Origin: Roseibacillus sp.
GTDB lineage: Bacteria; Verrucomicrobiota; Verrucomicrobiia; Verrucomicrobiales; Akkermansiaceae
Direction of reading: 5' to 3'
NCBI GenBank assembly: GCA_965242925.1
Contig: CBDEUM010000013.1
Coordinates: forward strand, 1 to 64,000
Length of the DNA stretch: 64,000 bases
The position numbers were made by a program, and so were the translations under genes. The notes beneath the pieces are model-generated. The model did no database searches. It saw only the letters and a list, made by a program, of their open reading frames with translations, and had not been told where the DNA came from. Numbering within the stretch: the stretch's first letter is position 1; every line of letters begins with the position of its first letter. This document shows positions 44,169 through 46,580 of the stretch, piece by piece.

Positions 44169-44930
44169 ATGTCCAACCCCTCCAAACTCCTCCGCAACCC
44201 TCTCGTCCTGATCGCCTCTGGCATCGTCCTCCTGGGCCTGGTGGTATCCATCGCAATTACCAGGTCAATGGGCCCGGACGAAAAAGAACGCGTGGAGTCC
44301 GGAGAAAAAAGGGTAATCCAGCCTTCGAAATCCTCCGTGCCTCCCTCCAGATCCTCCGAGGGCAGCTCTCGCGGCGGCCCGCGCAAATCGCAGGGCAAGG
44401 AGATCCAGGGGGATGGACACATCGTGGCCGTGCCCGAGAAGTCCAGGCGGCAGGAGTTCATGACTGCGATCTCGGTCCGGGCCCGCAACGAATTGAAGGG
44501 ACTGCGCGAGCAATACAAGACCGAGTTCGACTCCGCTGAGTCACGAAAAGAATTCAGTGATACGTTACGGAACGTCACCGACCCTGAGGAGCGTCAACGC
44601 CTGCTCCTGGAACGTACCACCGCATTACGCGTGGCTCGCAACAAGATGGATGCTCAAAAGGGATTTCCCGGGCGTGCCCGGGAGAAACGCCTCATCGACC
44701 TCATGCAGGTCCAGAATCTCTGGCGCATGAACACCTTTGTCGCCCGAAACGCCTCCCTGACCGGGGAAGCCGGAAAATTCGACGACCGCCTTGCTGAGTG
44801 GGCGGTAAACTCGGAAGACATGAGCGACGAGGAATTTCACACGACCTTCAACGAGCTGCGCCATGACCTGAACGTCCTCCGGGGCCGCAACCAGAGCGGC
44901 GCCCGCCCCCAGCCTTCGATACCAAAATAG
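44169..44930 (+). CDS. Hypothetical membrane-anchored helical protein
   Basis: Single N-terminal TM (PLVLIASGIVLLGLVVSIAI), Ser/Pro linker, charged helical body. Confidence 0.7.
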   Translation: MSNPSKLLRNPLVLIASGIVLLGLVVSIAITRSMGPDEKERVESGEKRVIQPSKSSVPPSRSSEGSSRGGPRKSQGKEIQGDGHIVAVPEKSRRQEFMTAISVRARNELKGLREQYKTEFDSAESRKEFSDTLRNVTDPEERQRLLLERTTALRVARNKMDAQKGFPGRAREKRLIDLMQVQNLWRMNTFVARNASLTGEAGKFDDRLAEWAVNSEDMSDEEFHTTFNELRHDLNVLRGRNQSGARPQPSIPK

Positions 44931-44933
44931 GCC

Positions 44934-45146
44934 TTAAAACAACAACGCAGCTTCCCCCGGCTTGGGAAACCCGCCGGTCCGGGCCTTGGTATAAAGCAGC
45001 TCTCCGTCCCGGCGCACCTCAAAGATGCCCCCGCCACCCGCCACGAGAGACACCTCTTCCCCGGTCTTCTCCCTGATCTCAGCCGAGACACGCTCGGCTT
45101 CTGGAAGATAGTTTCACTGTGCGCAGTATTCGATCTCGATCGCCAT
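44934..45146 (-). CDS. Selenoprotein, Rdx (SelT/SelW/SelH) family, Sec at codon 11
   Basis: MAIEIEYCAQ-U(TGA 45114-45116)-NYLPEAERVSAEIREKTGEEVSLVAGGGGIFEVRRDGELLYTKARTGGFPKPGEAALLF*. Shows IEYCxxU, GGIFEV and K..GGFP Rdx motifs, with a SECIS-type hairpin downstream of the UGA. Confidence 0.9.
45076..45109 (-). promoter_or_regulatory. Bacterial SECIS element
   Basis: mRNA: AUCUU-ccaga-AGCCGAG-CGUGU-CUCGGCU-GAGAU. Perfect 7-bp upper stem; apical loop starts 21 nt after the UGA and has GU at loop positions 2-3. Confidence 0.8.
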
Positions 45147-45204
45147 GCCCAAGTCTGAACCAGCAGGAGGAATGGATCAATCCCAGGATCTTTTGATCTA
45201 CGCG

Positions 45205-45287
45205 TCCTTGATTTCTTGCATTCAGGGACGGCAATGGATGAGCTTGGCTAGACCGTAGTCGTCACCCCATGCCCCCACGCCCTCCTG
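45205..45287 (+). repeat. Diverged direct repeat copy 1 (upstream region + start codon module)
   Basis: TCCTTGATTTCTTGCATTCAG (21 bp identical) ... GACCGTAGTCGTCACCCCATGCC; matches 46705-46788. Confidence 0.85.
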
Positions 45288-45311
45288 ACAAACCTTCCTG
45301 AATCCACCCCG

Positions 45312-46580
45312 ATGCAAGACCCGCCACTTTCCCGCGACCTTTCACGACAGCACCTGGAAGTAACCCGGCGTTATTTCATGCATCTGGGAACAGCCGGCTT
45401 CGCGGCCATGGGCTGTCCCTCCCTGCTGCGGGCTCAGGATGCGGACAGGAACATCCATGAAGAAACAATTGCGGCCCTAGAGTATCTGACCCATCAGAAG
45501 GAATTCGAGCTCGTTGAGCGAGGCAATCCTCTGCCATATAAATTGCCCCTGGAAAAACGTCTGGCAATCGGCATGGAGAGGGAAAGCTGGAAACTAGACG
45601 TGATCGCCGACAGCGCAACAAACGCCCAGGTGGACAATCCGCTTTCAAGGGAAAAAGGCACCGCGCTCGATTTCAAGGGTCTCTTGAAACTCGCCGGCAA
45701 ACGCCCAACTCGCTTCCTCAAGGTGATGACCTGCAACAACATGGGAACTCCCCTTGGAATGGGCCTGTGGGAAGGAGTGCCCCTGCGCGAGGCGATCTGG
45801 GCGGCCAAACCCTCCGCCAACATCCGCCGGGTCTTCTATTACGGACATCACAATGAGGATCCGAAGCAGATGTTCCGCAGTTCCCTTCCCATCGGTCGAG
45901 TGCTGGAAGATCCACCCGGAGACCACCCGGTCATCCTCTGCTACAAACTGAACGGCGAATGGCTGAGCGGTGAAAGCGGTGGGCCGGTAAGAATAATCGT
46001 ACCTGAAGCCTACGGGTTCAAGTCAGTCAAGTGGCTGAAGACCGTGGTTCTCACAAACGCACCCGCTGCCAATGACACCTACGCCGGTGGCAACAACGAC
46101 ATCGACAGCTGGATGAAAACCATGTGCCGGTTCATCCACATCCCGGCACAGGCAAAGGCCGGCTCCCCGATCCCGCTGACCGGACTGGCGCAAGTCGGCG
46201 TCGGCGGACTGGGAAAAGTGCAGGTCTGGATCAAACCCCGGCAGGATGGCGAATGGCCCAAGGATGATCCCTACTTCACCAAGGCCCCGTGGCAGGATGC
46301 CGCGATTCTGCCACCACCCGAAAAGTGGGGCGGCGGGCTACCCGGGGGCAAATTGCCACCGGATGTGCGCTTTTTCACCCCGGAAGGCAAACCGGCCCAG
46401 TGGCCGATGCGCTACACCATCGCCCACTGGGCGACCCTTCTAAAGGGCATGGCTCCTGGGAAATACGACATCTACTGCCGCACGATCGACCAGCAAGGTC
46501 ATGCCCAGCCGATGCCGCGCCCGTTCCGCAAATCCGGACGCAACAAGATTGAGGGATCACCCATCACCATCGAGGGCTGA
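45312..46580 (+). CDS. Tat-exported molybdopterin-dependent oxidoreductase, sulfite-oxidase family
   Basis: TRRYFM twin-Arg signal; MTCNN (candidate Mo-ligating Cys), WEGVPL, YKLNGEWL, GGPVRIIVPEAYGFKSVKWL; C-terminal dimerisation-like domain (CRTID..G..QP). Confidence 0.88.
   Translation: MQDPPLSRDLSRQHLEVTRRYFMHLGTAGFAAMGCPSLLRAQDADRNIHEETIAALEYLTHQKEFELVERGNPLPYKLPLEKRLAIGMERESWKLDVIADSATNAQVDNPLSREKGTALDFKGLLKLAGKRPTRFLKVMTCNNMGTPLGMGLWEGVPLREAIWAAKPSANIRRVFYYGHHNEDPKQMFRSSLPIGRVLEDPPGDHPVILCYKLNGEWLSGESGGPVRIIVPEAYGFKSVKWLKTVVLTNAPAANDTYAGGNNDIDSWMKTMCRFIHIPAQAKAGSPIPLTGLAQVGVGGLGKVQVWIKPRQDGEWPKDDPYFTKAPWQDAAILPPPEKWGGGLPGGKLPPDVRFFTPEGKPAQWPMRYTIAHWATLLKGMAPGKYDIYCRTIDQQGHAQPMPRPFRKSGRNKIEGSPITIEG

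Follow-up and report, generated by a model that had tools for sequence, protein, structure and literature searches.

A previously unannotated SelW-like (Rdx) selenoprotein gene with an in-frame UGA and a SECIS hairpin in a marine Roseibacillus genome

The minus strand of a Roseibacillus contig very probably carries, at 45146-44934, a functional gene that encodes a SelW-like (Rdx) selenoprotein of 70 residues, in which selenocysteine (Sec) is inserted at a UGA codon by means of a SECIS hairpin. Evidence from the protein family, the UGA, the hairpin and the Sec machinery of the genome supports this reading, which had been put forward from the DNA letters in an original prediction of an Rdx/SelW CxxU selenoprotein with a SECIS. 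The gene is a previously unannotated member of a well-known selenoprotein family. The window (the whole stretch of DNA that was analysed, 64,000 nucleotides) belongs to contig C13 of an assembly of 4.58 Mb in 42 contigs that is 89.87% complete.

The gene and its read-through product

The gap between the flanking open reading frames (ORFs) of annotated size extends over 44931-45311 (about 380 bp), and the next plus-strand gene starts at 45312. The ORF list holds only fragments at this locus. As the original prediction had it, a hidden CxxU gene lies in the gap on the minus strand; its 70 codons run from an ATG to a TAA stop and include one in-frame TGA as codon 11 (Table 1). The gene is missed by gene finders because of this in-frame UGA. 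When the TGA is translated as U, the 70-residue product reads MAIEIEYCAQ-U-NYLPEAERVSAEIREKTGEEVSLVAGGGGIFEVRRDGELLYTKARTGGFPKPGEAALLF. Its N-terminal part is MAIEIEYCAQ-U-NYLPEAERV, with the redox motif C8-A-Q-U11, and its last residues are LLF. The stop codon, which reaches 44934, is separated by 3 bp from that of the convergent plus-strand ORF, which ends at 44930, and this arrangement also matches the first description.

A terminator-like hairpin in the last codons is the sole such site in 44800-45400, where shuffled sequences give a mean of 0.5. The neighbouring genes encode a 265-aa protein without a Pfam family, an Oxidored_molyb protein, a GFO/IDH/MocA oxidoreductase and a sulfatase. 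In the synteny comparison these neighbours were common to close relatives only, and no conserved neighbour hinted at a substrate.

Table 1. Positions of the features at the Rdx locus (window coordinates, contig C13) and of the further selenoprotein candidates (contigs C14 and C22)
Feature	Position	Strand	Basis
SelW-like/Rdx selenoprotein CDS, 70 residues; ATG 45146-45144, TAA 44936-44934 (stop included)	44934..45146	-	translation, profiles, orthologues, model
UGA Sec codon, codon 11, second position of C8-x-x-U11 (45116-45114)	45114..45116	-	orthologues, homologues
SECIS hairpin, 6-bp stem GCCGAG (45098-45093)/CUCGGC (45087-45082), 5-nt loop CGUGU (45092-45088)	45082..45098	-	comparative pairing
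Terminator-like hairpin in the last codons, T-rich run after it, overlapping the stop	44949..44971	-	weak pattern match
Promoter-like pair TTGATC (45180-45175), 17-nt spacer, CAGACT (45157-45152), then 5 nt and the ATG; candidate promoter	45152..45180	-	7/12 consensus positions
RNA-library contig, X15 rec 3	45001-45151		RNA-library cover
RNA-library contig, X16 rec 10	45037-45307		RNA-library cover
RNA-library contig, X17 rec 18	44790-45181		RNA-library cover
Candidate, thioredoxin-like (Thioredoxin_8), W-U-x-x-C	C14:613191-613757		family match across TGA
Candidate, thioredoxin-like (Thioredoxin_8), W-U-x-x-C, adjoining the previous gene	C14:613819-614535		family match across TGA
Candidate, thioredoxin-like (Thioredoxin_8), W-U-x-x-C	C22:23092-23832		family match across TGA
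Candidate, AhpD-like 'peroxidase-related enzyme', CxxU	C14:245521-246210		TIGR01926, 135.9 vs 81.8
Candidate, NuoG-fused formate dehydrogenase alpha (Fdh-alpha), U381	C22:62428-65202		TIGR01591, 726.2 vs 666.25

Selenocysteine machinery of the genome

The genome was predicted to decode UGA as Sec, and the genes recovered from the assembly bear this out: selB, selC (tRNA-Sec) and selD were found, and selA was not. SelB (287.5 bits, cut-off 242.25) is encoded by a 653-aa ORF with GTP_EFTU, SelB beta-barrel, wing_2 and wing_3 domains. The tRNA-Sec scores 59 bits (cut-off 47) and is called as tRNA-SeC with anticodon TCA by ARAGORN. The selD gene (366.6 bits) has an in-frame TGA of its own in the motif SCAG-U-ASK, making it Sec-type; the U of this motif is presumably the catalytic Cys/Sec of SelD.

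Searches with TIGR00474, PF03841 and tblastn using a congener SelA did not find SelA in the 89.87%-complete assembly, and its absence is not established because the assembly is only complete to this degree. SelA is above cut-off in 18 of 19 congeners (the other miss is a 70%-complete genome) and is present in 9 of the 10 Rdx-Sec-bearing relatives searched for it. At the nucleotide level nothing in this assembly matches the 17.5 kb that surround selA in the closest congener, and the selA flanks of six other congeners likewise lack a counterpart. As a control, the Rdx locus of the closest congener maps to this genome with 92.4% identity over 3.2 kb. What is missing is thus a whole block, the pattern of an unbinned contig rather than of a clean deletion of the gene. 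Judged from these comparisons, the SelA miss is best explained by a gap in the assembly.

If SelA were truly absent, the UGA might be read by near-cognate Cys or Trp decoding, Sec might be made by an unknown route, or the selenoproteome might be freshly dead. The lack of any kind of SelA match and of any counterpart to the selA surroundings of congeners speaks for this alternative, but it is very unlikely given the incomplete, 42-contig assembly, the presence of SelA in nearly all congeners and a missing block of the pattern left by an unbinned contig. Moreover, selB, the tRNA-Sec gene, the Sec-type selD and at least six further TGA genes with hairpins are intact, which would be unexpected after loss of Sec synthesis.

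Protein family and predicted fold

The read-through product matches the Pfam family Rdx (PF10262) over residues 3-65, across the UGA, with 64.3 bits (cut-off 22.6, E 1.2e-17), and the NCBIfam family TIGR02174 (CXXU_selWTH) with 52.3 bits (cut-off 34.2). The profiles thus substantiate the claim that the resemblance to Rdx continues on either side of the UGA, as do the solved structures and the structural model described below. With the NCBIfam equivalog NF041051 (SelTWH_Campy) the product scores 78.1 bits, below the cut-off of 88, and is not filed there. The closest solved proteins by sequence are 2fa8 (Atu0228, E 8.5e-11), followed by 3dex (SAV_2001), 2ojl, 2p0g, 2oka, 2obk and human MIEN1; the CxxC Rdx structures among them span E values of 8.5e-11 to 1.5e-4. 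In the bacterial structures described as 'selenoprotein W-related', including 2fa8 and 3dex, the CxxC motif aligns to the CxxU of the read-through product, which places the UGA at the second Cys position as predicted.

An AlphaFold2 model of the product, built with 18 orthologues as input, has a pLDDT of 91.3 and the order b1-a1-b2-b3-b4 (strand 3-8, helix 14-28, strands 32-37, 42-46 and 49-53). In this predicted model, the redox motif C8-x-x-U11 lies between the end of b1 and the start of a1. A Foldseek search of the model against the PDB gave Rdx/SelW structures as the best matches (TM 0.86-0.90, rmsd 1.2-1.5 A), among them 2fa8 with a TM of 0.89 and an rmsd of 1.2 A, and thioredoxins followed far behind. 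Mouse SelW (2npb) was matched with a TM of 0.67 and MIEN1 (2ljk) with a TM of 0.71. The read-through product is therefore predicted by the model to have the thioredoxin-like Rdx fold.

Conservation of the UGA codon

A six-frame search of 61 genomes (that of the window and 60 relatives) matched the Rdx protein in 19 genomes from 11 genera, with 20 matches in all. Exactly one in-frame TGA is present in 19 of these matches, and the twentieth is a weak CxxC paralogue (E 3e-4). The TGA occupies the same C-x-x-U column in all 19 orthologues, whose identity ranges from 42 to 99%, and none has TGC or TGT there. Conservation at the protein level is seen on both sides of the TGA, and the N-terminal strand M-x-I-E-I-E-Y-C is kept before it in every orthologue.

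More distant homologues were collected by scanning one genome per species for a Cys-coded pattern, a scan that serves as a negative control and says nothing on the spread of the Sec form. It yielded 54 loci (Nitrospirota, Chloroflexota, Methylococcales and others), which contain 55 motif rows; the codon at the Sec column is TGC in 48 of these, TGT in 6 and TGA in 1. Aligned to the homologues with TGC or TGT, U11 takes the place of the second Cys, and at the level of codons the alternation of TGA with TGC/TGT at this column is the classic signature of a Sec/Cys pair. A reassigned genetic code is excluded because TGA serves as a stop more often than any other codon in the genome (it closes 1858 of the 3461 open frames that have 300 codons or more) and because the Rdx gene itself terminates in TGA in four relatives.

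Translation that halted at the UGA would yield a 10-residue peptide, and the Rdx-like remainder would come from an internal start or not be made. Public automatic predictions do begin after the TGA; the nine matches among public database relatives are N-truncated fragments of 39-56 aa, with one exception of 116 aa. However, the conserved strand upstream of the TGA contains the first redox Cys, falls within the Rdx profile match and forms b1 in the model, and a product without this strand would lose half of the active site. Termination at this codon is thus exceedingly improbable.

The SECIS hairpin

The hairpin AGCCGAG-CGUGU-CUCGGCU has the letters given in the original prediction, and its loop lies 21 nt past the UGA as described there. 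The stem begins 15 nt after the UGA, and an extra A-U pair (45099/45081) is formed in this genome only. Folded as a single sequence, the hairpin is unexceptional (z = -0.95; 36 of 200 shuffles fold equally well), so that its significance comes from comparison and not from the single sequence. In the gap-free alignment of the 19 Sec forms, the helix (columns 31-36/42-47) is paired in 112 of 114 cells (98.2%), compared with 78.6 +/- 2.8% in a shuffle control in which none of 500 shuffles reached the observed value. Sliding the partners by one to three columns leaves 16.7-54.4% paired. Compensatory double changes are found in three of the six pairs (CG/GC/UA; AU/CG/UG; CG/GU/UA/UG), the covariation score is 0.457 vs 0.109, and the only helix that RNAalifold predicts is this one, without a conserved lower helix or bulge. 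The hairpin is thus conserved, and it covaries.

The loop has the form N-G-U-N-U in the 19 sequences, with an invariant G followed by a nearly invariant U. SelB of Escherichia coli contacts a G-U in the SECIS loop. The hairpin resembles the E. coli fdhF-type SECIS in this loop and its invariant G but differs in its short stem of 6 bp, which is without the conserved lower helix or bulge. PMC1088965 places bacterial SECIS elements within the coding sequence just after the UGA and gives them a small G-containing apical loop, whereas those of eukaryotes are found in the 3' UTR and are built differently; the hairpin fits the bacterial description in its position and its loop. An Rfam scan of 44700-45400 with E values up to 10 returned three chance-level matches and no SECIS, and Rfam may have no model for bacterial SECIS elements.

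The stem overlies the codons of the conserved helix a1 (A-E/D-R-V-S-A), and coding alone was therefore tested as its cause with the Cys-form genes. At the same register, the 54 Cys-form genes pair in 176 of 324 cells (54%), as might be expected if a conserved helix rich in GCN codons favoured pairing by itself. The full set of six pairs is nevertheless present in only 1 of the 54 Cys forms compared with 17 of the 19 Sec forms, and the lone TGA-form gene among the loci of the Cys scan (L047) forms 6 of 6. The hairpin thus accompanies the UGA and not the protein sequence. In addition, the stem is kept while the residues that it encodes vary (AERVSA, ADRVSA, AVRVAA, AASLAA, AAGLAA), its pairs show the exchanges GC/CG/UA, AU/CG/UG and CG/GU/UA, and the G of the loop does not change. 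That the hairpin is a by-product of coding rather than a SECIS is accordingly a very slight possibility.

The accuracy of the sequence can be judged from other data. The Rdx stretch is present in seawater or marine metagenome runs of 13 studies, and RNA-library contigs of three runs, which are unstranded and may include DNA, agree with the assembly at every letter of the TGA and hairpin. An assembly error in the TGA is ruled out because the same TGA occurs in independent DNA and RNA-library runs. The rival reading, in which a CxxC Rdx gene has become a pseudogene through a nonsense mutation or only seems interrupted because of a sequencing or assembly error, could appeal to the SelA miss and to gene callers that shorten the gene, as in the database fragments, but it is effectively refuted by the conservation of the TGA in 19 of 19 orthologues and the covarying hairpin after it, besides the independent runs and the conserved protein on both sides, and has next to no probability left.

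Upstream sequence and a possible leaderless mRNA

The promoter-like pair TTGATC-N17-CAGACT has the letters and the position, 5 nt before the ATG, that were first described. A sigma-70 scan of the Rdx upstream sequence returned 0 sites, the pair being below the threshold of the scan. There is no GGAGG before the ATG and no Shine-Dalgarno sequence. The upstream sequences of relatives were compared at 17 loci with a clear start codon, excluding two (L036 and L037) whose starts are uncertain. A positional profile was made from 14 loci after the near-identical L020-L022 were dropped too; the upstream regions are largely unalignable. Most relatives have a pair resembling TTGnnn-16/17 nt-CAnAnT whose distance to the ATG is fixed at 5-7 nt. 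When that distance is 6 nt, the mean score is 6.29 of 12, and scores of at least 7 are reached in 9 of the 14 non-redundant but kinship-linked relatives, the pair of this genome scoring 7 of 12 at 5 nt. Other upstream offsets have means of 2.7-4.9 (maximum 4.86) with zero to three loci at 7 or above, and one offset inside the conserved coding region has 4 of 14 loci at this level.

With this spacing of the pair, the transcript would begin with the A of the ATG or with a nucleotide beside it. The chances are about even that the Rdx mRNA of this lineage is leaderless, with a promoter held 5-7 nt before the AUG across genera, and they are put no higher because the relatives are not independent. 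The suggestion of a leaderless mRNA made in the original prediction thus gains from the conserved spacing in relatives; the negative sigma-70 scan speaks against it. RNA-library contigs also cover sequence before the ATG; their source may be the divergent gene or DNA, and this cover proves nothing either way on a leaderless start. In the portions of the literature that the search reached, no bacterial precedent for a leaderless selenoprotein mRNA with a SECIS was found.

Further selenoprotein candidates

The original prediction also held that the genome probably has further unannotated selenoproteins. A genome-wide scan with crude filters considered 31,596 read-through frames with a single TGA by coding score, redox motif and hairpin. 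It gave 28 hairpin-positive frames with a Cys motif, including Rdx and selD. Eight of these were set aside (four with fewer than 10 upstream codons, two with fewer than 30 downstream codons, Rdx and selD) and the other 20, all with a Cys motif, were put to a family search; a further 17 hairpin-positive frames have no Cys motif. In 5 of the 20 (Table 1) the match to a curated family extends across the TGA, and these five have small hairpins with the loop G-U 19-25 nt after the UGA. Twelve of the 20 were rejected as two genes in one frame or as having no family across the TGA. Candidate L100, with the motif T-U-GSC, is among three without a clear family call; in L115 a Flavin_Reduct match spans the TGA and is N-truncated, and L116 is HMA-like but below cut-off. 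The prediction is thus supported, at the level of sequence, by at least five further unannotated selenoprotein genes as candidates.

Proposed mechanism and relation to known selenoproteins

Comparative and genomic evidence underlies the recoding of the UGA and the machinery in the mechanism proposed here, to which we add, by inference, the transcription start and the redox role. Transcription would begin at the AUG or no more than a few nucleotides from it, so that the mRNA would be leaderless. A ribosome arriving at the UGA of codon 11 would insert Sec instead of terminating when the SECIS downstream recruits SelB-GTP-Sec-tRNA(Sec). The genome would provide the tRNA-Sec, a SelB with winged-helix domains for SECIS binding and the Sec-type SelD, and SelA is presumed to lie in the unassembled part (about 10%) of the genome. 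The motif and fold suggest that the product is a thiol/selenol oxidoreductase that would cycle through a selenenylsulfide.

The prokaryotic SelW-like selenoproteins correspond to Pfam PF10262 (earlier PF05169) and NCBIfam TIGR02174. The product shares with them an N-terminal CxxU, a small thioredoxin-like fold, a UGA with a downstream SECIS and a marine host, and shows no essential difference. With 70 residues it is rather short, the solved bacterial Cys forms having 103-108 aa as deposited, and compared with these selenoproteins the gene is apparently leaderless, monocistronic and without a conserved neighbour. The CxxC Rdx proteins have the same fold but carry Cys in place of Sec, need no SECIS and have a longer C-terminus; their genes are without the SECIS hairpin at the corresponding register. 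Mouse SelW and MIEN1 belong to the same family and fold, and SelW has its CxxU at the same place, but their identity to the product is only 21-32%. One source already names the public relatives 'predicted Rdx family selenoprotein'.

According to PMC1088965 and PMC2398784, SelW-like proteins ranked first in abundance among prokaryotic selenoprotein families in the Sargasso Sea data, with 48 genes, and again in the GOS data, with 427 Sec genes vs 56 Cys homologues. The find is therefore sound yet ordinary, as no selenoprotein family is commoner in marine bacteria. With it, another lineage joins the selenoprotein family that is most widespread among marine prokaryotes, and no new question arises besides the possible leaderless architecture. 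The only mildly new point is the promoter-like pair at a fixed spacing before the ATG, which suggests a leaderless mRNA. If this is true, a 70S-initiated ribosome would translate only 10 codons from the very start of the transcript before meeting the Sec-UGA, the SECIS would occupy nucleotides 49-65, and the gene would be an unusually compact, UTR-free recoding unit. Such a gene would offer a natural minimal cassette for studying SelB/SECIS recoding under leaderless initiation. For the organism, standard gene callers split, shorten or overlook the Rdx gene and at least six other UGA genes (selD, FdhA, an AhpD-like gene and three thioredoxin-like genes), and correct annotation of these genes alters the redox and formate metabolism inferred for this marine lineage.

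Flanks of the Rdx gene

The Rdx gene of the window and the gene convergent with it are only 3 bp apart, and for this reason any terminator must overlap coding sequence. The T-run of a terminator-like hairpin does overlap the Rdx stop (see table). The product of the divergent gene, a molybdopterin-binding oxidoreductase, carries T-R-R-Y-F-M at its N-terminus, which, from its sequence, looks like a twin-arginine signal. Only the three closest relatives have this gene next to Rdx.

Sec and Cys forms of Rdx in one genome

A Myxococcales MAG contig (locus L047) contains two Rdx genes inside one 3.2-kb locus. The TGA form reads IKYCRE-U-NY and is followed by the full 6-bp hairpin, and the TGT form reads IEYCKP-C-NY and has 4 of the 6 pairs; the two are adjacent Sec/Cys paralogues. 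The related genome G030 possesses both a Sec-form Rdx (L035) and, elsewhere in the genome, a distant CxxC paralogue (L038, with ITIQYCTGC...).

Other selenoprotein candidates

The genome-wide scan for frames read through a single TGA also yielded candidates in other families. In the NuoG-fused formate dehydrogenase alpha subunit (L105), codon 381 is TGA in the context SRA-U-HAPT, and the TIGR01591 match spans it (726.2 bits vs 666.25). The TIGR01926 match to the AhpD-like protein (L103) likewise spans the TGA (135.9 vs 81.8); its motif, D-C-Y-Y-U, is a CxxU, and downstream of the TGA lies a strong 8-bp hairpin whose loop is AGUU. Three Thioredoxin_8 candidates (L101, L102, and L104), which look like secreted proteins, have F/Y-SASW-U-x-x-C in place of WCxxC, and each has a hairpin with an A-G-U-U-N loop downstream of the TGA. 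L102 and L101 form a tandem pair. Three further candidates are tentative: L115 lacks the N-terminal half, L116 has no family match above any cut-off, and L100 matched no family.

Features of the window and of its assembly (G000; C, contig; U, Sec)
Feature	Location	Strand	Family or remark
Terminator-like hairpin	window 44949-44971	-	inside last codons of Rdx gene
Molybdopterin-binding oxidoreductase, 422 aa, divergent from Rdx	window 45312-46580	+	Oxidored_molyb, 78.5 bits
selD (selenophosphate synthetase), L009	G000:C14:573853-574776	+	366.6 bits
NuoG-fused formate dehydrogenase alpha subunit, 925 aa, L105	G000:C22:62428-65202	+	TIGR01591
AhpD-like 'peroxidase-related enzyme', L103	G000:C14:245521-246210	-	TIGR01926
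Thioredoxin_8, L102	G000:C14:613191-613757	+	thioredoxin-like, TGA in motif
Thioredoxin_8, L101	G000:C14:613819-614535	+	thioredoxin-like, TGA in motif
Thioredoxin_8, L104	G000:C22:23092-23832	+	thioredoxin-like, TGA in motif
Flavin_Reduct fragment, C-H-E-U, L115	G000:C35:693-1013		Flavin_Reduct
HMA-like, G-V-T-U-A-G-C, L116	G000:C39:27373-27738		below all cut-offs
T-U-G-S-C protein, L100	G000:C12:63994-64842		no family

selA and selD

The selA gene is present in 18 of 19 congeners, including the closest, G008. The selA block of G008 (L045; G008:C142:43000-60500), which consists of selA together with 17.5 kb or more of surrounding sequence, has no counterpart in the G000 assembly. The selD gene of G000 has a single in-frame TGA, located within the N-terminal SCAG-U-ASK loop, and its product is a Sec-type SelD. 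Standard gene calling is expected to truncate this gene.
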